64,000 bases of DNA from sequence record OR352938.1; one strand, given 5' to 3'. Source of the DNA: Escherichia phage AV108. The notes under the pieces are model-generated. The model had not been told where the DNA came from and ran no database searches. It saw only the letters and a list, made by a program, of their open reading frames with translations. Shown one piece after another: positions 1 through 63,200 of this stretch. Each line of letters begins with the position of its first letter. Positions within the stretch are counted from its first letter, which is position 1. Made by a program: the position numbers and the translations under genes.

Positions 1-3314
<3,314 letters not shown>

Positions 3315-3345: not shown

Positions 3346-5343
3346 ATGACTCTATTATCACCGGGTTTCGAAACGAAAGAAACTACTCTCTCCACTACCA
3401 TTGTGCAATCTGCGACTGGTCGCGCGGCGCTGGTAGGTAAATTTCAATGGGGTCCAGCTTTCCAGATTGTTCAAGTAACTAATGAAGTTGAATTAGTTAA
3501 TAAATTTGGTCAGCCGGATAATAACACCGCAGACTATTTCATGAGCGGGGCTAACTTCCTCCAGTATGGCAATGACCTGCGTGTTGTTCGTGTACTCAAT
3601 AAAGAAAAAGCAAAAAACGCAACTGTCCTAGCTGGTAACGTCGAGTTTGAAATCACAAACGAAGGTTCAAACTACAAAGTAGGCGATTCGATTAATGTAA
3701 AATACAACCGTCAGGAAGTTGAAACCGCTGGCAAAGTAACCAAAGTGGATGCCGAAGGTAAAATTAAAGGTATTTTCATCCCAACCGGGAAAATCATTGC
3801 TCTGGCTAAGTCCATTGGTGTTTACCCTAATCTGGATGGGTTTACCGCAGAAATCACTTCCGGCACTGGTAACTCAACTGCGGCGATCACCATTTCAAAA
3901 ATTGTTACCGATTCCGGTCTTCTCTTAACGGATCTGGAAACTTCCCGTGCCAATATCACAAATCAAACTTTCTTGACTAAACTCAAGAAGTATGATATGC
4001 CAGCAGTAAGCGCGATCTATGCTGGTGAGATCGGGGACTCTCTGGAAGTCGAGATCCTAGCACGTAGTGCGTTTAAGAACACCGCACCGGATCTGACAAT
4101 GTATCCTTACGGCGGTACTCGCACCGCAGCACGCAACCTGATTCCATATGCACCGCAGAATGATAATCAATATGCGTTTATTGTTCGTCGTGATGGTGTT
4201 GTGGTAGAATCCTATGTACTGTCTACTCTGAAAGGGGATAAAGACGTATACGGCAATTCTATCTATATGGACGACTTCTTTGCTCGTGGTTCTAGCCAGT
4301 ACATCTATGCAACCGCTCAGGGCTGGGTAGATGGTTTCAGTGGTATTATCTCTCTTGCTGGTGGTGTGTCTGCTAACGAAGCAACGATCGGTGGAGTTGG
4401 TGCTGATCCGTTCATCGGTGCGATGATGCAAGGTTGGGATCTGTTTGCTGAACGAGAATCTATTCACGTAAACCTGTTGATCGCTGGTGCATGTGCTGGC
4501 GAAGGCGATGCGTTCTCTACCGTACAGAAACATGCTGTTTCCATCGGTGATGAGCGTCAGGATTGCTTAGTAATGGTTTCTCCGCCGCGTAGCACTGTTG
4601 TTAATATTCCGGTGACTACTGCAATTGATAACCTGATTGCATGGCGCGAAGGTTCAGGAAACTATAATGAAAACAACATGAACATTAATACCACTTACGC
4701 GGTTATTGATGGTAACTACAAATATCAGTATGACAAATACAACGACGTAAACCGTTGGGTTCCGTTGGCTGCTGATATTGCTGGTTTGTGCGCTCGTACT
4801 GATGCTGTATCCCAGCCGTGGATGAGTCCGGCAGGTTATAACCGTGGTCAGATCATGAACGTGGTTAAACTGGCAATTGAGCCTCGCAAGGCGCACCGCG
4901 ATCGTCTGTATCAGGCCGCAATTAACCCGGTGATCGGTGCTGGTGGTGAAGGGTTTATCCTGATGGGTGATAAAACCGCTACGACTGTTCCTAGCCCGTT
5001 TGACCGCATTAACGTTCGTCGTCTGTTTAACATGCTGAAAAAGAATATCGGCGATTCAAGCAAATACAAACTGTTTGAAAACAATGATAACTTTACTCGC
5101 GCTTCCTTCCGTATGGAGGTTTCGCAATATCTCAGCACGATTCGCTCTCTGGGTGGCATTTATGACTTCCGAGTACAATGCGACACCACGAATAACACGC
5201 CGGATGTAATTGATCGTAACGAATTTGTTGCTAGTATGTTCATCAAACCAGCAAAATCGATCAACTATATCATGCTCAATTTCACTGCTGTTGCAACTGG
5301 TTCTGATTTTGACGAAATTATCGGTCCAGCTAACCAGGCATAA
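3346..5343 (+). CDS. 18: tail sheath protein (T4 gp18-like)
   Basis: 665-aa ORF, RBS GAGGAAA; size and position between 17 and 19 match T4 gp18 (659 aa). Confidence 0.9.
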   Translation: MTLLSPGFETKETTLSTTIVQSATGRAALVGKFQWGPAFQIVQVTNEVELVNKFGQPDNNTADYFMSGANFLQYGNDLRVVRVLNKEKAKNATVLAGNVEFEITNEGSNYKVGDSINVKYNRQEVETAGKVTKVDAEGKIKGIFIPTGKIIALAKSIGVYPNLDGFTAEITSGTGNSTAAITISKIVTDSGLLLTDLETSRANITNQTFLTKLKKYDMPAVSAIYAGEIGDSLEVEILARSAFKNTAPDLTMYPYGGTRTAARNLIPYAPQNDNQYAFIVRRDGVVVESYVLSTLKGDKDVYGNSIYMDDFFARGSSQYIYATAQGWVDGFSGIISLAGGVSANEATIGGVGADPFIGAMMQGWDLFAERESIHVNLLIAGACAGEGDAFSTVQKHAVSIGDERQDCLVMVSPPRSTVVNIPVTTAIDNLIAWREGSGNYNENNMNINTTYAVIDGNYKYQYDKYNDVNRWVPLAADIAGLCARTDAVSQPWMSPAGYNRGQIMNVVKLAIEPRKAHRDRLYQAAINPVIGAGGEGFILMGDKTATTVPSPFDRINVRRLFNMLKKNIGDSSKYKLFENNDNFTRASFRMEVSQYLSTIRSLGGIYDFRVQCDTTNNTPDVIDRNEFVASMFIKPAKSINYIMLNFTAVATGSDFDEIIGPANQA

Positions 5344-5969: not shown

Positions 5970-7535
5970 ATGTTTAGTAGATTAAAAATGCTTGCGCGTT
6001 GGGCTGATTTTGACAACGACAAATACGAAGAACAAATTAAAGATAAAGCAGAGTCTATCGCCGCACCTAAAAACAATGATGGTGCTACGGAAGTAGAAAT
6101 TAATGATAATTTACCTGCTAGCGCGTGGAACTCTCTTACCCAGCAATTTTACAGCACCGACCAGAAAATCAGCACAACTAAGCAATTAGTTAACACATAT
6201 CGCGGTTTGATGAATAACCATGAAGTCGAAAACGCTGTACAAAATATCGTTAACGATGCGATTGTATTTGAAGAAGGTCATGAAGTTGTTTCATTAAATC
6301 TTGAGGCGACTGGCTTTAGTGAATCTGTAAAAGAGCGCATTCATGAAGAATTTAAAGATCTTTTAAACACTATCCAGTTTGATAGGCGCGGTCAGGATAT
6401 GTTCCGTCGCTGGTATGTCGATTCGCGTATTTTCTTCCATAAAATCATCGGCAAAAATCCAAAAGATGGTATCGTAGAATTACGCCAGCTTGACCCACGT
6501 AATCTTGAATACGTTCGAGAGATCATTACAGAAGACACACCGGAAGGTAAAATTTATAAAGCAACGAAAGAATATTTCATTTACACTGTAGGCAATAGCT
6601 CTTATTGCGCAGGTGGTCAAGTATTCTCTCCTAATAGTCGCGTTAAAATCCCGCGTAGTGCTATTACATACGCTCACAGCGGCTTGATGGATTGCGATGA
6701 TAAATATATCATTGGTTATTTGCATCGGGCTGTTAAGCCAGCAAACCAGCTTAAATTGTTGGAAGACGCAATGGTCGTTTATCGTATCACGCGTGCACCG
6801 GAACGCCGAGTGTTCTTTATTGATACCGGAAACATGAACAACCGCAAGGCTGCACAGCACATGAACTCAGTGGCACAGTCTTTTAAAAACCGCGTTGTTT
6901 ATGATGCATCGACTGGTAAACTTAAAAACCAGCAAGCAAATCTATCAATGACAGAGGACTACTGGTTACAGCGTCGAGATGGTAAAGCAATCACCGACGT
7001 TACTACTTTACCCGGTGCATCCGGTATGAGTGATATCGATGATATTCGCTACTTTAACCGTAAATTGTATGAAGCGTTGCGTGTACCATTGTCACGCAGT
7101 AATCTCTCCGATGCTAATATGGTGATCGGTGGTGACGGTTCAGAAATTACTCGCGATGAGTTGGAATTTTCGAAATTCATTAGAACTCTGCAATCACAGT
7201 TTTCGGAAGTATTGCGCGATCCTCTGAAATATAATCTGATTCTCAAAAATGTAATTACGGAAGACGATTGGGATCGTGAAATAAATAATATCAAGGTGGT
7301 TTTCCATCGGGACTCTTATTATACAGAAGTTAAAGACGCGGAAATTTTAGAACGTCGAATCGGTCTAATCGAACGTATTACACCTTACATTGGTAAATAT
7401 TTCTCTAACCAGACAGTGATGCGTGACATTCTGAAATATACCGATGACCAGATGGACACCGAGAAGAAACAGATCGAAGAAGAAGCGAACGATCCGCGCT
7501 TTAAACAAACTCCCGATGAAATAGAGGATTTTTAA
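5970..7535 (+). CDS. 20: portal vertex protein (T4 gp20-like)
   Basis: 521-aa ORF; size and position match T4 gp20 (524 aa). Confidence 0.9.
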   Translation: MFSRLKMLARWADFDNDKYEEQIKDKAESIAAPKNNDGATEVEINDNLPASAWNSLTQQFYSTDQKISTTKQLVNTYRGLMNNHEVENAVQNIVNDAIVFEEGHEVVSLNLEATGFSESVKERIHEEFKDLLNTIQFDRRGQDMFRRWYVDSRIFFHKIIGKNPKDGIVELRQLDPRNLEYVREIITEDTPEGKIYKATKEYFIYTVGNSSYCAGGQVFSPNSRVKIPRSAITYAHSGLMDCDDKYIIGYLHRAVKPANQLKLLEDAMVVYRITRAPERRVFFIDTGNMNNRKAAQHMNSVAQSFKNRVVYDASTGKLKNQQANLSMTEDYWLQRRDGKAITDVTTLPGASGMSDIDDIRYFNRKLYEALRVPLSRSNLSDANMVIGGDGSEITRDELEFSKFIRTLQSQFSEVLRDPLKYNLILKNVITEDDWDREINNIKVVFHRDSYYTEVKDAEILERRIGLIERITPYIGKYFSNQTVMRDILKYTDDQMDTEKKQIEEEANDPRFKQTPDEIEDF

Positions 7536-32172: not shown

Positions 32173-32204
32173 GTTTGATTCTCCTTTCGTTTCGGTATGT
32201 GTGC

Positions 32205-32234
32205 ATTATAGGGGATCACCGATCCCCCTGTCAA
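32205..32234 (-). promoter_or_regulatory. sigma70-like early promoter with palindromic spacer (PeSL-type)
   Basis: TTGACA - GGGGGATCGGTGATCCCC - TATAAT on minus strand; spacer is an inverted repeat with two GATC. Confidence 0.65.
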
Positions 32235-32241
32235 CAATTTT

Positions 32242-32760
32242 TTAGTTATTTTTTAATTGCTCATCTTGCAATAGGGCAATCACATGCTGGCGATGTTCTT
32301 CCGATTGAGGCACACCGAAAAAGTTTGTTTTGTAGAAATACTCTAATCGGTCTTCTCGTGTGCTCTCTTCCATCATGATCGCGGGTAGTCCGAGATTTCG
32401 GAAACGTCGCTTTTCTGCTGGCGTAAAATCACTGTAATACAACATAGAATCATCATTACAAGCAATGCTAAACTCATCCTTCATAAAGGAGAATATTGCG
32501 TTTAAACGCTGTTTACCGTCCACGATTTCGATCTCATAGCGAGAGCCATCATCAATCTTAGCCATTGCGATAGCACCAACCGGAAAATCATTAATCAGGT
32601 TTTCGATAAACATACGTTTGTTTTCGGTGTCCCATACTAAAGGACGCTGATAATCTGGGTTCATGTTGATATAGCCATCTTCTAACCATGCATCATAAAC
32701 AGAGATGACAAAGTTTTTAGTATTGGTATAGTAACGGCGTTTAGGCGTTAAACGGTTCAT
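32242..32760 (-). CDS. DUF262 / ParB-like nucleotide-binding domain protein
   Basis: 172 aa from ATG 32760 (AGGAG RBS); PDYQRPLVW and IVDGKQRLNAIF match the DUF262 (GmrS-like) signature. Confidence 0.6.
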   Translation of the reverse strand: MNRLTPKRRYYTNTKNFVISVYDAWLEDGYINMNPDYQRPLVWDTENKRMFIENLINDFPVGAIAMAKIDDGSRYEIEIVDGKQRLNAIFSFMKDEFSIACNDDSMLYYSDFTPAEKRRFRNLGLPAIMMEESTREDRLEYFYKTNFFGVPQSEEHRQHVIALLQDEQLKNN

Positions 32761-32761
32761 G

Positions 32762-33094
32762 TTATAGTCTCCTGAATGGATCATCACGTAAATCAATATC
32801 TTTTAAGAACTCAACCCATGAATGCCGGATATTGTTCTTAATTCTCCAGATAAGCGCAGGGATTGAACGCTCTCCCATCTGGAAGTATGGATCATATGAT
32901 CCGTATGCCCAATATGCTACTACAATTCCACAATCAGCGCAATAGTATTCTATTTCACTTGCTGGCGACCAAAGTCCATCAATATGATCGGTGATCTTGC
33001 TTTCGATGTTATGGCTATGACAATCAGGGCAACGGATGCAATGACCTTGTTTATCGTAATTTGACGTTAGCGAATACTTAAACAATCTCATCAT
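32762..33094 (-). CDS. Cys-rich zinc-ribbon-like protein
   Basis: 110 aa with CIRCPDC...CADCG; start overlaps the MTase-like gene stop as ATGA. Confidence 0.55.
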   Translation of the reverse strand: MMRLFKYSLTSNYDKQGHCIRCPDCHSHNIESKITDHIDGLWSPASEIEYYCADCGIVVAYWAYGSYDPYFQMGERSIPALIWRIKNNIRHSWVEFLKDIDLRDDPFRRL

Positions 33095-33807
33095 AGATCC
33101 TTATTGGCTTCAAATACTGCCTTTGCGAATCCTCGCGGGGTAAGTGACCTTATAGTCTTTGTTTTCGTTCCTTTCCCGCCTAGCTTAGAATGCTGTTTAC
33201 TGTACCCTTTATTAATCTGCAACGGTTTCTTTTCTGGCATTATAAAGCCTTGTCCGGTCCATAAGCAAGTCTTTTTCGGGTACATATCACGGGCGGCGAT
33301 ATACTCAGGAAAAGTAGGATGTTTATCATCTTCCGGCAAATAACCGCCATATTCCCACGGATGGAACATGTAATCAGGCTTACGCCACATACTAGAGATA
33401 ACGCTTACAGGATTCTCTATCATGTAGGGAACTCCTAGCCATTCACCCAAATAAGCGGTTATTTTAGCTGCCCTTACATCATGAACTTGAATCAATGGTC
33501 CTTGTTCTAGTTTCTTTCGTTCAAAGTGCGCAGCGCCACTAACAGCTAAATTGGTGCACGGTGGGAATGCAAAGATAATATCCGGTTTCCCCCATTCAAG
33601 GTCCATTGCTCTTTCCAGCCAATTCAAATCAATCCATGTGTTTACATAGGTAATGTTTGGATGTTCAAATCTGGTATTATACTTTTTGTATGTACCGTGG
33701 TCGGCGTCATCCGCATTAAAGCAGACTACCTTATGACCTGCTTTAGCCCATTCTAGCCCCATTATCCCCGATCCGTCAAAGTTGCAGAATATTAATTTTT
33801 GTTTCAT
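33091..33807 (-). CDS. minimal C5-cytosine methyltransferase-like protein
   Basis: 238 aa; motif I-like FCNFDGSG, motif IV-like FPPC..LAVSGA, motif VI-like ENP, C-terminal RSLTPRG; no room for a normal target-recognition domain. Confidence 0.55.
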   Translation of the reverse strand: MKQKLIFCNFDGSGIMGLEWAKAGHKVVCFNADDADHGTYKKYNTRFEHPNITYVNTWIDLNWLERAMDLEWGKPDIIFAFPPCTNLAVSGAAHFERKKLEQGPLIQVHDVRAAKITAYLGEWLGVPYMIENPVSVISSMWRKPDYMFHPWEYGGYLPEDDKHPTFPEYIAARDMYPKKTCLWTGQGFIMPEKKPLQINKGYSKQHSKLGGKGTKTKTIRSLTPRGFAKAVFEANKDL

Positions 33808-34337: not shown

Positions 34338-34366
34338 ATTGTAGGGGAGTTATCCTCCCCTGTCAA
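34338..34366 (-). promoter_or_regulatory. sigma70-like early promoter with palindromic spacer (PeSL-type)
   Basis: TTGACA - GGGGAGGATAACTCCCC - TACAAT on minus strand. Confidence 0.6.
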
Positions 34367-34380
34367 CACTTTTTATAAAA

Positions 34381-34548
34381 TTATTTGTTAATTTCTGGTG
34401 CGTTGCTAGGATAGTAACCTTCTTTAACTCCGAGGTATTTCGCAACCATCCCTACAATCTTCTGTGCTACTACAATGTCAAATTTAAGATAATCTTCGCC
34501 GTGGGTTTCAATGATATATGCTTCACATGCTGCTTTAGTCTCGAACAT
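34381..34548 (-). CDS. hypothetical small protein (55 aa), paralog of 37663-37830
   Basis: Almost identical at protein level to the 37663-37830 ORF (EAYI...HGEDYLKFDIVVAQKI.GMVAKYLGVKEGYYPSNAPEINK). Confidence 0.5.
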   Translation of the reverse strand: MFETKAACEAYIIETHGEDYLKFDIVVAQKIVGMVAKYLGVKEGYYPSNAPEINK

Positions 34549-34581
34549 TTTGATTCTCCTATTTAGTTTCGTTATGTGTGC

Positions 34582-34610
34582 ATTATAGGGGATCTCCCGA
34601 TCCCCGTCAA
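34582..34610 (-). promoter_or_regulatory. sigma70-like early promoter with palindromic spacer (PeSL-type)
   Basis: TTGACG - GGGATCGGGAGATCCCC - TATAAT on minus strand. Confidence 0.6.
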
Positions 34611-34624
34611 CAACTTTTTTAAAA

Positions 34625-34906
34625 TTATTCGTGATTAGTTTCGATGTTGTGTATTTTGCACCAGTTCAGCCAATCGCCAAGATCCTGATAGTTGATGCTT
34701 TTATCTGCTGCCATCGTTTTTGTCTTGATACCCATATGTGCGTTATGGGTAAGCATTTTTACAGTGAACTCAATTTTATCGCCTTTAGCTTTAACATCAA
34801 CCAGTTTGGTCCACTGGCTACCAGCGCCTCGAATGTTCATACCAACGATGTTTCCGATGTATGCTTCTTTGTTTTTCAGGATTTCGGTTGCTTTGATGAA
34901 TTTCAT
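34625..34906 (-). CDS. hypothetical protein (93 aa)
   Basis: ORF with GGAGAA RBS downstream of promoter 34940-34968. Confidence 0.5.
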   Translation of the reverse strand: MKFIKATEILKNKEAYIGNIVGMNIRGAGSQWTKLVDVKAKGDKIEFTVKMLTHNAHMGIKTKTMAADKSINYQDLGDWLNWCKIHNIETNHE

Positions 34907-34939
34907 TTTTGATTCTCCAGTTCGTTTCGGTATGGGTGT

Positions 34940-34968
34940 ATTATGCTATGTTCTTACTTTGGTGTCAA
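34940..34968 (-). promoter_or_regulatory. sigma70-like early promoter (TTGACA-17-CATAAT)
   Basis: Minus-strand -35/-10 pair upstream of 34625-34906. Confidence 0.55.
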
Positions 34969-34976
34969 CAACTTTT

Positions 34977-35246
34977 TTAGATATTTTCAGAAATAAATTT
35001 TAAAACTTGACGTAAATGTTTCTCATCTTTGATAGTCGCCGGAAGTTCTTCTTTTACTTCCTGTGCAAGATAGATATTTCCGTTCCAAGTGAAAGATCCG
35101 TCTTCGTTTACGCGATAGCTGAACATCCACTCGCAATCATTTTCGATTTCATATACACACAGAAGGGTGTAATCGTTAAAGCTATTGATTTCAAGGTCGA
35201 AGCCGTGACGTTTTGCAAAGTTGGTAGTGGTTTTAGTCAGCGCCAT
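34977..35246 (-). CDS. hypothetical protein (89 aa)
   Basis: ORF with GGAGAA RBS downstream of promoter 35287-35315. Confidence 0.5.
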   Translation of the reverse strand: MALTKTTTNFAKRHGFDLEINSFNDYTLLCVYEIENDCEWMFSYRVNEDGSFTWNGNIYLAQEVKEELPATIKDEKHLRQVLKFISENI

Positions 35247-35286
35247 TGTTTGATTCTCCTAAGTGGTATCTCGTTTCGATGGGTGT

Positions 35287-35315
35287 ATTATGCTATAGGC
35301 GTGATCTGGTGTCAA
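35287..35315 (-). promoter_or_regulatory. sigma70-like early promoter (TTGACA-17-CATAAT)
   Basis: Minus-strand -35/-10 pair. Confidence 0.55.
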
Positions 35316-35340
35316 CAACTTTTTTAATTTTTTGGAAATA

Positions 35341-35363
35341 AAAAAGCCGACACTAAGGTCGGC
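35341..35363 (-). terminator. rho-independent terminator (GCCGAC-loop-GTCGGC)
   Basis: Hairpin with minus-strand U5, after the 35372-35680 gene. Confidence 0.6.
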
Positions 35364-35371
35364 TAATAAAA

Positions 35372-35680
35372 TCATTTAGACAAATAATCATTCAGTGCAA
35401 TCCGGTCGGCGTATGCTGGTGTTACGTCAATCGCAATCACTTTAACGCGTGCTTTCTTGCGACCTGGGTTTTCTCGTAACCAGTGCTCATGACCGTGAAC
35501 ATTTTTATACTTTGATGCTTCTTCAAATGTACGGATCGGACCTGGATAATCTGCGTAAAGGATCTCTAGGTCTTCGGTGATGTAAAAATATACATCATAA
35601 TTACTGTTCTCTAGTTTAAGCAGAGACTTTCTGAACATTGGGAGATTTTCGCGGGTAAATTCAAAGATATTATCTTTCAT
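35372..35680 (-). CDS. small early protein, HxHW paralog family member 1
   Basis: 102 aa; C-terminal HGHEHWL...VIAIDV shared with five neighbouring ORFs. Confidence 0.55.
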   Translation of the reverse strand: MKDNIFEFTRENLPMFRKSLLKLENSNYDVYFYITEDLEILYADYPGPIRTFEEASKYKNVHGHEHWLRENPGRKKARVKVIAIDVTPAYADRIALNDYLSK

Positions 35681-35704
35681 AGTATTATCCTCAATAGTTT
35701 GATG

Positions 35705-35728
35705 AAAAGGGGTGGGGCTTAACGCCCC
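35705..35728 (-). terminator. rho-independent terminator (GGGGC-TTAAC-GCCCC)
   Basis: Same hairpin as at 31688; minus-strand U-run follows. Confidence 0.55.
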
Positions 35729-35733
35729 GTATA

Positions 35734-36021
35734 TTAAAACAGTCCTTCCTGTACACCGTAGTAGAGTTCATCGCTGATAATTTCATTAATGCGACGGTGT
35801 GCATATTCCTGATTTGCGAAGTTATCAGCAAGTTCTACTTTAGTTTCGCCGTCATGAGTCCATTTAGTGATAACTTTACCATCTGCAAATTTGAAGTTGA
35901 ACTCTTTAGCTACTGCATCACGTACCAGACGTGCGAACTTGTTGTTACGGATTGCATTATCGGTTTCGTGTGCAGCGTGAGCGAATTTATTAACTTTCAG
36001 AGTGATAGTAATGTATGCCAT
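35734..36021 (-). CDS. hypothetical protein (95 aa)
   Basis: ORF with GGAGAA RBS downstream of promoter 36068-36096. Confidence 0.5.
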   Translation of the reverse strand: MAYITITLKVNKFAHAAHETDNAIRNNKFARLVRDAVAKEFNFKFADGKVITKWTHDGETKVELADNFANQEYAHRRINEIISDELYYGVQEGLF

Positions 36022-36067
36022 AAGTTGATTCTCCTAGTTAGAAAGTGTATCTCGTTTCGATGGGTGT

Positions 36068-36096
36068 ATTATGCTATACACCCGATCTTATGTCAA
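36068..36096 (-). promoter_or_regulatory. sigma70-like early promoter (TTGACA-17-CATAAT)
   Basis: Minus-strand -35/-10 pair. Confidence 0.55.
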
Positions 36097-36102
36097 CACT
36101 TT

Positions 36103-36381
36103 TTATAAAATAATTTTTTGATATTTTTCTATGATGTTTGTGTAGGTCACGTCAACCGCTAGCACCGTTGCTTCGAATCCACCGTTTAACCAATGGCTAT
36201 GATCATGATCGTGAAAGAAACCTAGACCAGTACGAAGACCTTCTTTATATTCGGAGCGTACATTTAGATCATCATCGATAAACAGATAAAACCATGAATT
36301 TTTACTAGGATTGATGATACAACCTTTCAGATTAGGGAGAATATCACGACTAAGAATAAACTTATCACCTACTTTGAGCAT
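36103..36381 (-). CDS. small early protein, HxHW paralog family member 2
   Basis: 92 aa from ATG 36381 (GAGG RBS); HDHDHSHWL...VLAVDV. Confidence 0.5.
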   Translation of the reverse strand: MLKVGDKFILSRDILPNLKGCIINPSKNSWFYLFIDDDLNVRSEYKEGLRTGLGFFHDHDHSHWLNGGFEATVLAVDVTYTNIIEKYQKIIL

Positions 36382-36404
36382 AATATTTTCCTCACTTATA
36401 AAGT

Positions 36405-36704
36405 TTAACTGTTGTTTTTCTCGTAATGCTGAATGCGTGCTTGATCTGCTTCCGCTGGTGATAGATTCCATGCAACCACTACAACTTCTGACGCATCGTC
36501 ATCCGTTTTTGATACCCAATGATTGTGATTCATACAGTTATTTGCTATCGAGTGAGCAAATGATTTCATCACTGGAGACGTATAATCATAGTAACGGATT
36601 TTCAGATTTTCATCAACGTACAAATAGATCGTATAAGGTTTATATTCAGTAACCAGTAACAGACAGTTACGCAATTCTGGGAAAATCTTTTTAGTTAATT
36701 TCAT
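36405..36704 (-). CDS. small early protein, HxHW paralog family member 3
   Basis: 99 aa from ATG 36704 (GAGGA RBS); NHNHWV...VVVVAW. Confidence 0.5.
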   Translation of the reverse strand: MKLTKKIFPELRNCLLLVTEYKPYTIYLYVDENLKIRYYDYTSPVMKSFAHSIANNCMNHNHWVSKTDDDASEVVVVAWNLSPAEADQARIQHYEKNNS

Positions 36705-36705
36705 T

Positions 36706-36924
36706 TTATAATCCTCGGTCGCGGCTATAGTACACGGTACGCCATACAATTTCATGTTTCGTGTCGCTCCAGCACACGATCTCATTTACTCTTAAATCTT
36801 TGTTATCAACAAAAGATGAACATTGTGACGCTTCTTTCATCATTTTATCTGCTGTTTTCTCATCAAATACAGCACAGATTTCTTTATACACTCGATAATC
36901 TTTGAATTGACTCTGGATACCCAT
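36706..36924 (-). CDS. hypothetical small protein, paralog of 36884-37147
   Basis: Shares FK.Y..Y.......F.EKMM..AS.C.SF pattern with the adjacent ORF; start codon uncertain. Confidence 0.4.
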   Translation of the reverse strand: MGIQSQFKDYRVYKEICAVFDEKTADKMMKEASQCSSFVDNKDLRVNEIVCWSDTKHEIVWRTVYYSRDRGL

Positions 36925-37147
36925 AATTAACACCATTCCAACCAATTGTTTTTGAGAAAACGTTTATCCACTGTTGAGTGTAGCATGTTTCTTTCCATGA
37001 TACAATACGAGTAGAATAATGGTTTTTGTTTCCAGAAAAGGACGGGCATTTTGATGCATCTTCCATCATCTTTTCGGCGAACTCTGGTGCGTATACTCGC
37101 AGGATCTGTTGATATGCTTTGTATTCTTTAAATTTGCTCATAATCAT
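36884..37147 (-). CDS. hypothetical small protein, paralog of 36706-36924
   Basis: 87 aa; overlaps neighbours at both ends; boundaries uncertain. Confidence 0.4.
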   Translation of the reverse strand: MIMSKFKEYKAYQQILRVYAPEFAEKMMEDASKCPSFSGNKNHYSTRIVSWKETCYTQQWINVFSKTIGWNGVNYGYPESIQRLSSV

Positions 37148-37406
37148 TCACTACCTTATCAGCTTCTTTTGTTGTTTTTACATCAACTGCGATAACTCGT
37201 AAAGGTTCGTCATGGTTCCACCAGTGGTCATGAATATCAGCTTGTGATTTATCACCAAAGGAATCACGAATATCATTTTTACATTTATAGCTAATGTGAC
37301 CTTCATAGTCAACATAAAGGTAATTATCGAAAATCGGCGTTTTTAAGATCATACCGAAAAATCTTTCTTTGTGTGTCTTATCCAGCGTTGCAGTAATTCG
37401 CATCAT
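37128..37406 (-). CDS. small early protein, HxHW paralog family member 4
   Basis: 92 aa; IHDHWW...VIAVDV. Confidence 0.5.
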   Translation of the reverse strand: MMRITATLDKTHKERFFGMILKTPIFDNYLYVDYEGHISYKCKNDIRDSFGDKSQADIHDHWWNHDEPLRVIAVDVKTTKEADKVVNDYEQI

Positions 37407-37418
37407 AATATATTCCTC

Positions 37419-37598
37419 TTAGAAAGGGATGGTCATTTCTTGAGCTTGTACATTCTCGTTAGGATTAAACTTCATCCAACCGATATTGTCTACCAGCATA
37501 TGCACATTTTTATCATATCCTACGTGGGTAGTCAATACTGTATGTGCTTTACCTTCAATGATGAGTTCCATGTACTTCTGAACTTCGATAGCTTTCAT
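37419..37598 (-). CDS. hypothetical small protein (59 aa)
   Basis: ORF with GGAGAA RBS downstream of promoter 37631-37659. Confidence 0.4.
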   Translation of the reverse strand: MKAIEVQKYMELIIEGKAHTVLTTHVGYDKNVHMLVDNIGWMKFNPNENVQAQEMTIPF

Positions 37599-37630
37599 TT
37601 TGATTCTCCGTTTGTTGTCTTGATGGGAGT

Positions 37631-37659
37631 ATCTTACTACTCCCTTTAATCATTGTCAA
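37631..37659 (-). promoter_or_regulatory. sigma70-like early promoter with palindromic spacer (weaker -10)
   Basis: TTGACA then GGGAGTAGTAAGATACTCCC palindrome with TAAGAT as -10. Confidence 0.4.
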
Positions 37660-37662
37660 CTA

Positions 37663-37830
37663 TTATTTGTTAATTTCTGGTGCGTTGCTCGGATAGTAAC
37701 CTTCTTTAACACCAAGATATTTTGCAACCATTCCGGTGATCTTCTGTGCTACTACGATATCGAATTTCAGGTAGTCTTCACCGTGGTTTGCTACAATGTA
37801 CGCTTCGCATTCTGCTTTAGTCTGGAACAT
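37663..37830 (-). CDS. hypothetical small protein (55 aa), paralog of 34381-34548
   Basis: ATG at 37830; about 85 percent nucleotide identity to the 34381-34548 copy by eye. Confidence 0.5.
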   Translation of the reverse strand: MFQTKAECEAYIVANHGEDYLKFDIVVAQKITGMVAKYLGVKEGYYPSNAPEINK

Positions 37831-37864
37831 TTTTGATTCTCCTATATCTCGTTGGTATGTGTGC

Positions 37865-37893
37865 ATTATAGGGGATCGGTGATCCCCTGTCAA
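37865..37893 (-). promoter_or_regulatory. sigma70-like early promoter with palindromic spacer (PeSL-type)
   Basis: TTGACA - GGGGATCACCGATCCCC - TATAAT on minus strand. Confidence 0.65.
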
Positions 37894-37898
37894 CAACT

Positions 37899-38192
37899 TT
37901 ATAATGCTTTATATGCGTATTTCATAAATTTGTCTGCCACTTCATTGGCATGTTCAGATTCTACGCCTGATTCGAGAACAATAGCTAGGTCGGTTTCGTC
38001 ATTCCCGCCGTACCAATGATTTGATGTTCGATTTTTTTCAATTGGAAATTGGTCACTTTTATCTGTGCGACAAAATACATCTAAATGCTCGTCGATGTAA
38101 AAGATCCAATCTTCATAAAGAATAACGGTATTAGCAAGATTTTTATTGCCTTCAACGAAAGGTTCGGCTACAAACAAATTAGTATGTTCCAT
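37899..38192 (-). CDS. small early protein, HxHW paralog family member 5 (divergent)
   Basis: 97 aa from ATG 38192 (GAGG RBS); SNHWYGG...AIVLE. Confidence 0.45.
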   Translation of the reverse strand: MEHTNLFVAEPFVEGNKNLANTVILYEDWIFYIDEHLDVFCRTDKSDQFPIEKNRTSNHWYGGNDETDLAIVLESGVESEHANEVADKFMKYAYKAL

Positions 38193-38208
38193 AGTATTTT
38201 CCTCAAAA

Positions 38209-38400
38209 TTATACAGCTTCGTAAACTTCCCAATGTCCAACACCAGCACGCTTAACGAAAAGGTTTTCTTTGATGTTATTCATAAACGTCTGGATGGATT
38301 TAATGCGATTTGAAGGTTTCCAGTCTTCGTTGGCATTGCGTCGATACATCATAACATTACCAGTTCGCTTATATTCAGCAACCATTTTAAGACCACACAT
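38209..38400 (-). CDS. hypothetical protein (63 aa)
   Basis: ORF in compact minus-strand array. Confidence 0.35.
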   Translation of the reverse strand: MCGLKMVAEYKRTGNVMMYRRNANEDWKPSNRIKSIQTFMNNIKENLFVKRAGVGHWEVYEAV

Positions 38401-38457
38401 AATATTATCCTCAATTTGTGGGAGAGTATTACCCCTCCCAATGATTGTTATGTTATA

Positions 38458-38778
38458 TCACACAAAATGGCGTGTCAATGCTTCTTTTGCGGTTCCGCTA
38501 AGACTTTCGATCTCTCCTGGCATAACATCAACCGCCAGAACTTCTACAACATCCTCGGACCCTAACCAGTGAGTATGACCTTTGTAGAACTTAATAACCA
38601 GACTACCTTCCTCGTCCCATTTAACGCTATCGCTAGCCCACCACACATCACCGTCGATAAAGTTGATGTAAAGCACACTACGCCACATTGAATTAATTAC
38701 TTTCAATACTGCGCCTTTCATCTCTTCCACGGTATGGTCTTCCATTTTGAAGACCTCACCTACCTGAACTTTTGCCAT
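38458..38778 (-). CDS. small early protein, HxHW paralog family member 6
   Basis: 106 aa; GHTHWL...VLAVDV. Confidence 0.5.
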   Translation of the reverse strand: MAKVQVGEVFKMEDHTVEEMKGAVLKVINSMWRSVLYINFIDGDVWWASDSVKWDEEGSLVIKFYKGHTHWLGSEDVVEVLAVDVMPGEIESLSGTAKEALTRHFV

Positions 38779-38975: not shown

Positions 38976-39009
38976 AATTGATTCTCCTAGTTCGTTTCGG
39001 TATGTGTGT

Positions 39010-39038
39010 AGTATAGGGGATCACCGATCCCCTGTCAA
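39010..39038 (-). promoter_or_regulatory. sigma70-like early promoter with palindromic spacer (PeSL-type)
   Basis: TTGACA - GGGGATCGGTGATCCCC - TATACT on minus strand. Confidence 0.6.
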
Positions 39039-39050
39039 CAACTTTTTGAA

Positions 39051-39527
39051 TTATTTTTCTTGATGCTCGCGATCGTACTTTTCGAAATAAAATTCTACTG
39101 GCTGGTCGTGGATTGACAGCAAGCCAAAGCGTTTAGCCGCTCGCAATCCCATATTGCGCTGAATGTACTTCTGGAAGTTCTCGCGTATACACTTACGCCA
39201 GGATTCTAAGCCCATGCAGCTTTTATAAAGATTGCATTGCACACATGCCGGATTCATGTTATCAAGTATATCATGCTCCGGTTTATGCATTCCTACAACC
39301 TTATACTTCCACGATCCATCATCATTACGGGCAATTCGTCCATTTTCATCATAGACAACCTTTGAGCGTCGTAATACTGGTTTGATATGGTCTGCGTGCC
39401 AGCGATCCCCTAGTTCCTCGCCACAATAGGCACAACGTCCACCGTATTTCATTTTCAGGATCTGACGTTGCTCTTTCTTTGACAATTTTTTAGGTTTAGG
39501 GGCTTTCGCCCCTTCATTATCACACAT
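39051..39527 (-). CDS. HNH endonuclease
   Basis: CAYCG...HADHIKP...N...CVQCN fits the HNH Cys/His signature; start overlaps ligase stop by 8 nt; true start may be an internal Met. Confidence 0.65.
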   Translation of the reverse strand: MCDNEGAKAPKPKKLSKKEQRQILKMKYGGRCAYCGEELGDRWHADHIKPVLRRSKVVYDENGRIARNDDGSWKYKVVGMHKPEHDILDNMNPACVQCNLYKSCMGLESWRKCIRENFQKYIQRNMGLRAAKRFGLLSIHDQPVEFYFEKYDREHQEK

Positions 39528-60245: not shown

Positions 60246-63200
60246 ATGGCAGATTTTTCTCAACATTTCAAGGCCACATTTGGCTTTGACGCTGGTAATG
60301 AAAAGGTCGTCAATGTAGCATACGCAGATAAAAACACATCAACGGATGCGGTCAACGTTGAATTTTTCAATTACCATAATGGCATTACTCAGTATGACAC
60401 AACTCGCGGTTATGATCAATACGGAACTACAATCTATCAAAACCGTCCGTATTATGCAAAAGAAGATATCACAAAGCCAGCAGGTGATTTTGACCCGACT
60501 AAATGGCAAGCACTGCGCACGGACCCACGTTGGGATTATATTGCAGCAACTTCCGGTGATACTCCTTTACAGTCTGGTGATTATATCGCAGCAGATGGTC
60601 AATTTGCAAACTTGACTTTCTCTATGCCAACTAAACCAGCAGAGGGAGACACTATAACAGTAAAAGATATCGGTGGCAAGTGTGGTGTTAACGAATTATC
60701 GTTCTTGAGTACAGGACATGAGTTTTACCATAACGGTAATGTGTACAACCGAAAATGGTATTGCACTACCCCGTATGCAATGAACTATTTCATCTTTGTT
60801 CGTAATCGTTGGCATGTTTATCAGACAGGAACAGAGCCACGCGGTGTGTACGCACAGCCAGCGATTGATGCTATTCAAATGCAGAATGGTGATCAGGTAT
60901 TTCGTCGTAGTTCGTTGGGTAATATTACCTTAGTGCTTCCTAAGTTTGCCAACAATGGCGACATGATCCAGACTACAGACCTTGACGGATTAACCGCAAC
61001 CAACCACGTTACGGTTAAAGTTCATGAGCACGCAGAAGAACAATCAATTGGCACGTCCGGTCTAAAAGAGATTATCGGTAAGCGTAGCGGTCATGGTGTA
61101 TTCATCTTTGACAAGACGGAAAACTTATGGCGTTTGTGGGATGGTGATCAGTCTGTTCGTCTTAAACCGATCATCGATGACACTCGCTTGCAACCTAATA
61201 GCTATGTTGCTGTATTTGGTGATCGTGATGTTACTCTGACGCTGCCGACCAATGTCGAGCCGGGTGATCGTATTCAAGTTTCTATGCAGTATATGAACGG
61301 AAACCAGAATTGCCGTATTATCGCCGCCACAGAGGATACAAAAATCCTTATGCAGAAAAACATGGTTCAGTTTCCTAAGCGTAGCGAGTACCCATTCAAT
61401 GGGACCGATACATGGACGGGAGTATCTGAATTGTCTTTCAACGCTGCAAATGATTATGTACCTTATCTGGAGTTCTCTTATTCAGAAGGTGATGATGGTA
61501 AGAAATACTGGTTGGTGGCACATGCTCACCCGATTGTAGAACGAGTAGATCCGACTCGTAAAGATCGTGTTGGTGTAATTGCACTGGCTACCCAAACTGA
61601 AACGAATAAAAACCATGAAGAGAATCCTAGCGACGAAGTTGCAGTAACACCAAAAATGCTGGCTAATAAAACCGCCAACGAAACTCGACGCGGTATTGCT
61701 CGCATTGCGACTCAAGCGGAAACGCATCAAGATACTGGTTCCAACTTCCTGGATGATGTTATCGTTACGCCTAAAAAGTTAAATGACTGTGTTGCTACCG
61801 AAGCCCGTCGTGGTGTGATGGAAATTGCAACCCAGCACGAAACCAATGAAGGTTTAGACGATACCCGCGCTATTACTCCTAAGAAATTAGAAGAACGTCG
61901 CGCTTCCGAAGATCTCGCTGGTATTGCTGAAATTGTTCAGGCTGGCGGCAGTGCTGCCGCTCGACGTGGCGAAGCTGGTACAGGGATCTATAACATCAAT
62001 GACCATGCTAAAATTGTTACGCCAAAAAACATCAACGAAGTCAAGGCGACCGAAACTTCCCGTGGTGTTGGCTATCTGGCAACTGACGCGGAAGTGCAAG
62101 GGGCTACAGAATCAACCCCGCAAGATGCTTTACTCATCACGACTCGCACGCTAACGAAACGTACTGCTACCGAATCGCGCACTGGTATCGCTGAAATTGC
62201 AACTCAGGAAGAAACAAACTTAGGTCAAAGTGATAACCATATCATCACGCCTAAAAAGTTGCATACTCGCCGCGCAACGGAAACTTTACACGGTTTAGCA
62301 GAAATTGCAACTCAGCCGGAATTTGACGCAGGTCGTGACGATGATCGCATTTCTACCCCATTGAAGATTAAAACCTTCTTTGAGAATGCACAGCGTTTGA
62401 AAGTAGATCCGACTCAGGGGCTTAACCTTACTGGTGATTTGTGGCAAGGTATCATGATCAGCGGTCTGGATGCAACCGAAGATACAAAAGGTGTCGCTAA
62501 AGTTGCGACTACTCAGCTTACTGACGCTGGTCAAGATGATACTACAATCATCACGCCTAAAAAGCTGCAAGGCAAAAAGGCCACCGAAGGTAAAGAAGGT
62601 ATTATCCGAGTTGGTACTCAAGCCGAAACCGTGGCTGGTATTATGGACAATGTAGCAATTTCTCCGAAGAACTTCAAATATGTTGTTCAGACAGAGGATA
62701 CATGGAAAGCAACCGAAGCGCGTCGTGGATTCTTGAAAGTTGCTACTCAGGAAAACTGTTTTGTTGGTGATAATCTGCAAGGTTCTACTCAAGAACTAGG
62801 AAACTACCAGCATGACGGAATTGCTGTTACCCCTAAAGGATTAAACTACGCACTTGCTAATTTCTTACCTAAGATGGCAACCGCTCAGAATAGTTTGAAA
62901 TTGGGTAACGTAGAGGCCTCTAAATGGGCGCGTAGAGACATTGATCAGACCATAGAGAGCAATTACACGTTTAATAAAAACGTTAACGTGAAGGGCGATT
63001 TAGAGTGCTTAAAATCAGGTTCCTTTGAAACTCTGTCTGTGACTAAGAACTCGACCGATGTTCCGAGTAATGGTCATCTGGTGTTGGGTGAGCGTGGAGT
63101 TGACGGTCACACCGGAATTACTCTGCATGGCACAACCGCATCGGAAGGCATGAAAAACTCTTGGTCTATTATCGTTGGTGGTACTGGAACAGCGCAAGTT

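Follow-up and report, generated by a model that had tools for sequence, protein, structure and literature searches.

A probable old paralog pair in the PeSL cassettes of hyperplastic region HPR3 of Krischvirus phages

Promoter-early stem-loops (PeSLs) were first defined in the hyperplastic region HPR3 of the phages RB49 and Phi1 (Arbiol, Comeau, Kutateladze, Adamia, Krisch 2010, PMC2839356; Comeau et al. 2014, PMC4122927). According to the first of these papers, they are near-consensus sigma-70 promoters that carry a GC-rich stem-loop in the spacer (PMC2839356). PeSL206/205, the homolog of the element called PeSL-B below, proved very strong as a promoter, at ~13,000 Miller units when fused to lacZ, and for PeSL211/210 the stem-loop was reported to terminate transcription (PMC2839356). 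The same study recovered mini-circles carrying ORF191-194 from RB49 by inverse PCR and sequenced them, which placed the crossovers between the -10 element and the ATG of the flanking PeSLs (PMC2839356). A related case is known from T4, in which short repeats together with GGGC/GCCC motifs give rise to deletions and duplications (Mosig et al. 1998; Singer et al. 1982, both as cited in PMC2839356).

The pair of 55-codon genes described here belongs to the RB49/Phi1 system as that account presents it. Genus, hyperplastic region and genes are the same, and one member of the pair, copy A, corresponds to ORF191, a gene contained in the ORF191-194 mini-circle. The architecture is the same as well, running from AT-rich DNA through TTGACA, a 17-nt GGGG...CCCC spacer, TATAAT and a Shine-Dalgarno (SD) sequence to the ATG. 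The locus resembles the T4 case, as cited there, in that phage recombination acts on homologies of <50 bp close to small non-essential ORFs, which it removes in groups, but the homologies in question are near-consensus sigma-70 PeSLs and not T4-type early promoters. We thus regard the pair as an ordinary case of a known mechanism at the same locus, with no new kind of element involved.

What the present analysis adds to PMC2839356, as far as the relevant passages of that paper go, comes by comparison only: a deletion between PeSL-205 and PeSL-191 in the phages Cognac and FL04, excisions of copy A alone, and conversion patches between the paralogs. In the main text of PMC2839356 the term 'paralog' occurs 0 times and 'duplicat' a single time, within the methods; its passages on ORF191 and PeSL206/205 do not present ORF191 and ORF205 as paralogs. 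A search for literature on Krischvirus paralogs likewise returned none. The locus serves as a worked example in which natural isolates display the predicted products (block deletion, cassette excision, insertions and gene conversion) at the place where mini-circles were demonstrated in the laboratory.

The two cassettes and the extent of their homology

A 5-kb stretch around the pair matches 58 phage records, all of them RB49-like (genus Krischvirus, Straboviridae), and the 27 best-ranked of these 58 cover 100% of the 5-kb query at 91.7-98.2% DNA identity. Gene order around the pair is collinear with ORF186-213 of Phi1 and RB49, in whose annotation copies A and B correspond to ORF191 and ORF205, respectively. 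Judged from these sequence matches, the window (the whole 64-kb stretch of DNA that was analysed) is Krischvirus DNA, from a T4-type coliphage of the RB49/Phi1 kind, and the pair lies within HPR3. The features referred to below are as follows, with positions counted along the window.

34381-34548, minus strand: copy A (ORF191), 55 codons plus stop, translation MFETKAACEAYIIETHGEDYLKFDIVVAQKIVGMVAKYLGVKEGYYPSNAPEINK
34549-34624, minus strand: PeSL-A, between the ATG side of copy A and the stop codon of ORF193, with an AT-rich 5' end
34556-34560, minus strand: SD sequence AGGAG of PeSL-A, from the sequence
34582-34587, minus strand: -10 element TATAAT of PeSL-A, from the sequence
34588-34604, minus strand: 17-nt spacer of PeSL-A with the GGGGATC/GATCCCC stem-loop, from the sequence and an RNA fold
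34605-34610, minus strand: -35 element TTGACG of PeSL-A, from the sequence
37663-37830, minus strand: copy B (ORF205), 55 codons plus stop, paralog translation MFQTKAECEAYIVANHGEDYLKFDIVVAQKITGMVAKYLGVKEGYYPSNAPEINK
37831-37907, minus strand: PeSL-B, the equivalent of PeSL206/205, from the sequence
37865-37870, minus strand: -10 element TATAAT of PeSL-B, from the sequence
37871-37887, minus strand: stem-loop spacer of PeSL-B, from the sequence
37888-37893, minus strand: -35 element TTGACA of PeSL-B, whose promoter scores 12/12 against the sigma-70 consensus
34625-37598, minus strand: ten small ORFans separating the copies (homologs of ORF193, 194 and 197-204)
34940-34968, 35287-35315, 36068-36096 and 37631-37659, minus strand: further PeSL promoters between the copies
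34338-34366, minus strand: PeSL-190 promoter, which begins 14 nt past the stop of copy A and forms the 3' boundary of the repeat
38978-39050, minus strand: PeSL of the unrelated gene ORF209, same PeSL subfamily
32173-32245, minus strand: PeSL of the unrelated gene ORF186, same PeSL subfamily

Promoter A reads TTGACG-17-TATAAT and agrees with the consensus at 11 of 12 positions, while promoter B, TTGACA-17-TATAAT, agrees at every one; each is followed by an AGGAG SD sequence. Both spacers hold a GGGGATC/GATCCCC stem of 7-8 bp with a computed fold of -14.1 kcal/mol (z = -2.7 for A and -3.2 for B), and both PeSLs are bounded by AT-rich DNA and the stop of the upstream gene on the 5' side and by the SD sequence and start codon on the 3' side (TAATTTTAAAAAAG...TAGGAGAATCAAAATG). 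The sequence hallmarks of a PeSL cassette are found here, namely a consensus-like promoter, the stem-loop, the flanks and a location in a hyperplastic region among ORFans. Chimeric junctions in six phages, described below, further suggest that PeSL recombination has excised or inserted ORFs at this locus.

The two ORFs agree at 141 of 168 nt (83.9%). Their 27 nucleotide differences affect 24 codons, 18 of them synonymously, and the proteins have 49 of 55 residues in common and differ at six. A tblastn comparison of A and B within the window yields E = 3e-31, with the next best ORF in the 64 kb reaching only E = 0.1, so that the similarity of the ORFs is far beyond chance. In a repeat search of the window the ORF pair came out as a two-copy family of 172 nt at 84% identity, the longest repeat present; the repeat is direct, with both copies on the minus strand at a spacing of 3282 nt. 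Outside the ORF, identity falls to 60% upstream of the -35 element and 61% downstream of the stop. Homology above background therefore spans only the stretch from about the ATG to the stop codon, and it ends where the next PeSL starts.

The PeSLs themselves give a different picture. Their identities, measured from just upstream of the -35 element to the ATG, are:

PeSL-A and PeSL-B: 77.0%
PeSL-A and PeSL-209: 82.4%
PeSL-A and PeSL-186: 82.7%
PeSL-B and PeSL-209: 81.1%
PeSL-B and PeSL-186: 81.3%
PeSL-209 and PeSL-186: 89.3%

The PeSLs upstream of ORF186, ORF191, ORF205 and ORF209 make up one subfamily of four, which was defined by blastn-short and the repeat search, the strict pattern TTGACN-N16-18-TANAAT having caught part of the PeSLs only. 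Repeat family D2 (84%) agrees with the identities above. Neither ORF186 nor ORF209 is related to the gene of 55 residues. Since the PeSLs of A and B are no closer to each other than to the PeSLs of unrelated genes, the likeness of the two promoters is ordinary PeSL-family similarity, and we see no direct trace in the alignments that promoter and ORF moved jointly. PeSLs are also mosaic between phages: PeSL-A of Whisky carries a B-type 5' UTR, and PeSL-A of JSE a B-type -35 element and stem.

These results bear on a preliminary description of the same DNA, which had located both ORFs and both promoters (34582-34610 and 37865-37893) exactly. Its estimate of ~85% identity over ~230 bp, with a handful of differences between the proteins, is close to the aligned values of 195/234 (83.3%) and six residues. 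The description also claimed that the gene had been duplicated together with its PeSL promoter and proposed an alignment check against the identity seen between unrelated PeSL cassettes. The ORF portion of the repeat passes that check. The promoter portion does not, as the two PeSLs at 77% fall below the 81-83% that each has with the PeSLs of ORF209 and ORF186, and we accordingly see no support for a joint duplication.

Other genes and repeats of note occur nearby and elsewhere in the window. The pair is flanked by an HNH endonuclease gene beside the DNA ligase gene and by a DNA cytosine methyltransferase gene, ORF189 (39051-39527 and 33091-33807, respectively, both on the minus strand). Between the copies and on either side of them lies a family of ORFans of ~92-106 aa (homologs of ORF197, 199, 200, 203 and 208, and probably 206; 35372-38778, minus strand), whose members are 26-30% identical in pairwise comparison and, by eye, have a C-terminal H-x-H-W ... 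(V/I)(L/I)AVDV motif in common; this family is a far older paralog series within the same hyperplastic region. ORF201 and ORF202 are overlapping, adjoining tandem paralogs (36706-37147, minus strand; 40% identity over 63 aa, E = 2e-15). At 61692-62569 on the plus strand, families D5 and D7 are direct repeats of 41-43 nt whose spacings, 108-372 nt, are all divisible by 3, which is consistent with a repeated peptide motif if the DNA is coding there.

Age and origin of the pair

The age of the pair was addressed with both cassettes from RB49, Phi1, JSE, GEC-3S, Whisky and the window, and with single cassettes from Cognac, FL04, Brandy, JK32 and MIZ4. A-type and B-type proteins are nearly invariant within their type, and the same six amino acid differences between the types recur in all six genomes that contributed both. 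Over the 10 genomes and the window, the mean number of nucleotide differences per 168 nt is 2.3 within A, 4.0 within B and 24.3 between the types, and 13 fixed nucleotide differences separate A-type from B-type ORFs. By the Nei-Gojobori method A and B are separated by a dS of 1.21 in the window, where pS is 0.60, and by a mean dS of 0.89, while orthologs show 0.056 (A) and 0.120 (B), which makes the paralog value ~7-20 times the ortholog value depending on the figures compared; gene conversion blurs such dating by making the copies look younger, which favours an old split, yet it leaves dS unreliable as a clock. With dN = 0.055, omega between A and B is 0.046.

A tblastn census found 121 places in 70 records, and bands of identity split these into 12 siphovirus and 58 Krischvirus records. 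The copy numbers implied by these bands are two copies in 51 of the 58 Krischvirus records, B only in five (MIZ4, MIZ5, UPWr_E1, Brandy and JK32) and an A-type ORF only in two (Cognac and FL04); in this census no Krischvirus record lacked both copies (0/58). At least 43 phage records contain the copy A protein at ≥99% identity; among the matches listed, 37 of these are Krischvirus records, and in every one the identity is 100%. Given a dS several-fold above that of orthologs and the segregation of A and B types, the split is older than the sampled radiation of the genus. By this comparison the duplication predates the diversification of every Krischvirus isolate sampled, and strong purifying selection has since acted on both copies.

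Taking the evidence as a whole, we think it probable that ORF191 and ORF205 are an old intragenomic paralog pair, carried in PeSL cassettes, at a locus that PeSLs continue to remodel. Each copy would constitute an expression cassette of its own, with a PeSL and a strong SD sequence upstream and the next PeSL right after the stop. The second copy may have arisen when an excised mini-circle of ORF and PeSL re-inserted at another PeSL, in line with the published mechanism, or alternatively by unequal crossing-over between the PeSLs of replicating genomes. A PeSL-mediated origin of this sort would account for the fact that the homology stops exactly at the cassette borders. Copy A appears to occupy the parental locus near ORF194, and copy B to be the derived one.

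The proposed polarity draws on a homolog of 54 residues, P0003, which is 83% identical to copy A and is encoded on a 7.6-kb metagenomic contig (Logan SRR5584643). Its gene directly follows a homolog of ORF194 (41% identity, E = 3e-25), with start and stop codons overlapping and without a PeSL. The two genes occupy 4720-5165 of the contig, and homologs of ycdX and ghrA adjoin them (73% identity to E. coli), so that the contig looks like a case of hyperplastic-region ORFans residing also in an apparent enterobacterial chromosome. A search for a tRNA on this contig found none, and we therefore make no claim of a prophage at tRNA-Ser. P0003 has E3, E14, T15 and V32 like copy A and E7 like copy B, and the homolog from the siphovirus swi2 agrees with it at positions 3, 7, 14 and 15. 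These few residues, from one metagenomic contig, suggest that copy A holds the ancestral position and has one derived residue, and that copy B is the daughter and has four.

Alternatively, two diverged alleles of a mobile ORFan may have been acquired separately at two PeSLs within one hyperplastic region, for instance as PeSL mini-circles from co-infecting phages. The gene family is indeed mobile, with homologs in unrelated siphoviruses, in Sasha-like phages and on one bacterial contig, and PeSL mini-circles are encapsidated according to PMC2839356; a dS between A and B near saturation would also fit. We nevertheless consider separate acquisition rather unlikely. A and B resemble each other more (89% at the amino acid level) than either resembles the non-Krischvirus homologs (83% for P0003 against A, 72% for swi2), and they have in common a C-terminal PEINK extension that the siphovirus homologs lack. 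Moreover, no B-type donor phage was found, in searches that returned only 3-4 clusters from 1.8-5.8 billion proteins.

The preliminary description had favoured a recent intragenomic duplication of the whole cassette, promoter and ORF. That reading takes its appeal from ORFs that are 84% identical and constitute the longest repeat of the window, and from a nearly identical 3' end (47/48 nt), but the polymorphisms at the 3' end are common to the A and B sets and conversion accounts for them better. A recent segmental duplication should have near-identical synonymous sites and be absent from relatives. Here, synonymous sites approach saturation (pS = 0.60, dS = 1.2), the pair is present in 51/58 genomes, and the promoters are no more alike than background. 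The A and B alleles are distinct and fixed, with the same six amino acid differences, across RB49, Phi1, JSE, GEC-3S, Whisky and the window, and their dS of ~0.9-1.2 compares with 0.06-0.12 for orthologs. Because the two types segregate by locus across genomes, we rejected a recent date, which now seems very improbable. Generic cassette likeness (promoter, SD sequence and codon bias) in the absence of gene homology, a notion that fits the background-level PeSL portion by itself, can be set aside with near certainty given the 49/55 common residues, the in-window E = 3e-31 against E = 0.1 for the next ORF, and the full-length match of both proteins to the same family, PHROG 8009.

Recombination at the locus in natural isolates

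Several isolates have lost or gained parts of the locus. According to the deposited assemblies of Cognac and FL04, a lone gene of 55 residues sits between ORF206, its immediate upstream neighbour, and ORF190, its immediate downstream one, and the copy B ORF together with ORF204-193 (ten genes), ~3.3 kb, is missing. The junction has B-type context upstream of the promoter and an ORF that is A-type throughout. Measured against the allelic series, the switch from B-type to A-type falls inside the stem-loop in FL04 and between the -10 element and the ATG in Cognac, zones that match the mini-circle junction zones published in PMC2839356. The upstream flank of Cognac is 98.9% identical to that of the window and 91% to that of FL04, which is closest to MIZ4 and Phi1. 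Different junctions and flanks of different haplogroups thus mark the Cognac and FL04 deletions as two independent events.

Other phages carry other outcomes. Copy A alone has been excised in Brandy, JK32 and UPWr_E1, leaving a chimeric PeSL191/190 of which PeSL-190 is one partner and in which the crossover lies between the -10 element and the SD sequence. MIZ4, which also has a chimeric PeSL junction, has lost ORF191 through ORF186, that is, copy A and the genes downstream of it; the methyltransferase gene ORF189 is missing from MIZ4, as is copy A. Just upstream of copy A, ORF192 is inserted in RB49 and a different ORF in JSE. The PeSLs have identical stretches of 12-22 nt in common, and comparison of the genomes shows homologous PeSL-PeSL recombination as a continuing source of change at the locus. 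Within the ORF homology the longest uninterrupted matches measure 27, 20 and 17 nt, against 22 nt in the PeSL.

The preliminary description had predicted that recombination between the copies would delete the intervening ~3 kb, and the structure found in Cognac and FL04, with its two independent junctions, bears this out. Its view of the copies as the substrate is correct for the cassettes, which do recombine, but not for the homology of the ORFs, which was not used: the crossovers in Cognac and FL04 lie inside the PeSL, and duplication of the gene is therefore not needed for those deletions. The inversion that it envisaged as a second outcome was rejected, since both copies lie on the minus strand as direct repeats, which can yield deletion or duplication only, and the repeat search found no inverted repeat of ≥40 nt in the 64-kb window.

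Superimposed on these rearrangements, short gene-conversion patches pass between the two ORFs. At nt 51-75 the B copy of Brandy has A-type bases at 7/7 diagnostic sites, and at nt 114-132 B-type bases occur in the A copies of both Cognac and Whisky. In the window, the ORFs differ at one position in the last 48 nt and at 26 in the first 120 (Fisher p = 0.0009), a contrast that persists when third codon positions only are considered (p = 0.005). All patches fall where the proteins are identical, and the six amino acid differences are thereby preserved. Brandy is without copy A, yet its B copy (6001-6168 of the extracted Brandy segment) bears the A-type conversion tract.

Cognac49, Whisky49 and Brandy49 come from a single commercial phage cocktail, and all of them plate on K-12, C600 and BL21 (PMC9569957). 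Whisky, Cognac and Brandy thus represent three different configurations of the pair locus from one cocktail, and the plating of all three phages indicates that each configuration is viable. Eleven small HPR3 genes, the copy B ORF and the ten ORFans, are missing from two isolates, Cognac and FL04, and are therefore probably dispensable; of the two, Cognac49 plates on all three strains (PMC9569957). This is of use in phage engineering and for therapeutic strains of Krischvirus.

The 55-residue protein

Both copies match PHROG 8009 end to end (residues 1-55 on profile positions 1-55 of 55), with E = 7e-38 for A and E = 1e-38 for B. This family comes without an annotated function, so that membership leaves the mechanism of the protein unexplained. 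Neither protein has a match in Pfam, even at E = 10. A word-indexed search of 5.8 billion proteins returned 4 clusters, and an exhaustive HMMER search of 1.84 billion representatives returned 3 matches, one of them spurious (1625 aa); the family of 55-aa proteins is too small for a useful profile. An AlphaFold2 model built from an alignment of 5 sequences (mean pLDDT 67, pTM 0.37) predicts, with low confidence, a hairpin of two helices at residues 5-16 and 18-39 followed by a disordered tail, and a Foldseek search of the PDB with this model gave nothing better than E = 5.6.

Homologs in siphoviruses with genomes of ~45-48 kb (swi2, SeSz-2 and D10) are 70-72% identical, and those in Sasha-like phages 40%. 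In these siphoviruses and the Sasha-like phages the homolog is always a small gene adjoining the gene for the large terminase subunit. In swi2, SeSz-2 and Sasha it heads a short operon that runs opposite in direction to the neighbouring large terminase gene:

2501-2858 of the extracted swi2 segment: operon with the 55-aa homolog
2501-2858 of the extracted SeSz-2 segment: operon with the 55-aa homolog
2492-3125 of the extracted Sasha segment: operon with the 55-aa homolog

As to function, we can offer only a guess held with low confidence, which is that the protein is small, is strongly expressed early on and interacts with the host, that it consists of a two-helix hairpin followed by a conserved C-terminal tail, KEGYYPSNAPE, and that the two copies are partly redundant. 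Its grounds are confined to a strong early promoter, a small size, strict conservation and a C-terminal tail that does not vary. The KEGYYPSNAPE tail is invariant in both copies, and copy B has changes at Q3, A14, N15 and T32. A more specific possibility, to which we would give little weight, is that the copies are not simply redundant: the tail might bind a host target, the changes Q3, A14, N15 and T32 of copy B would sit on the N-terminal hairpin, the paralogs would be tuned to different host variants, and the protein would be nearly indispensable in nature. Retention of at least one copy in 58/58 Krischvirus, despite the loss of either, would fit such a near-indispensable early protein. If the copies do differ in this way, selection would filter PeSL-mediated loss so that one copy stays.

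A further metagenomic homolog, P0004 (77 aa), is a B-type variant with 12 extra N-terminal residues and a C-terminus that diverges after normal residue 40, and a frameshift or a wrong gene call on its 1.7-kb contig probably explains it.
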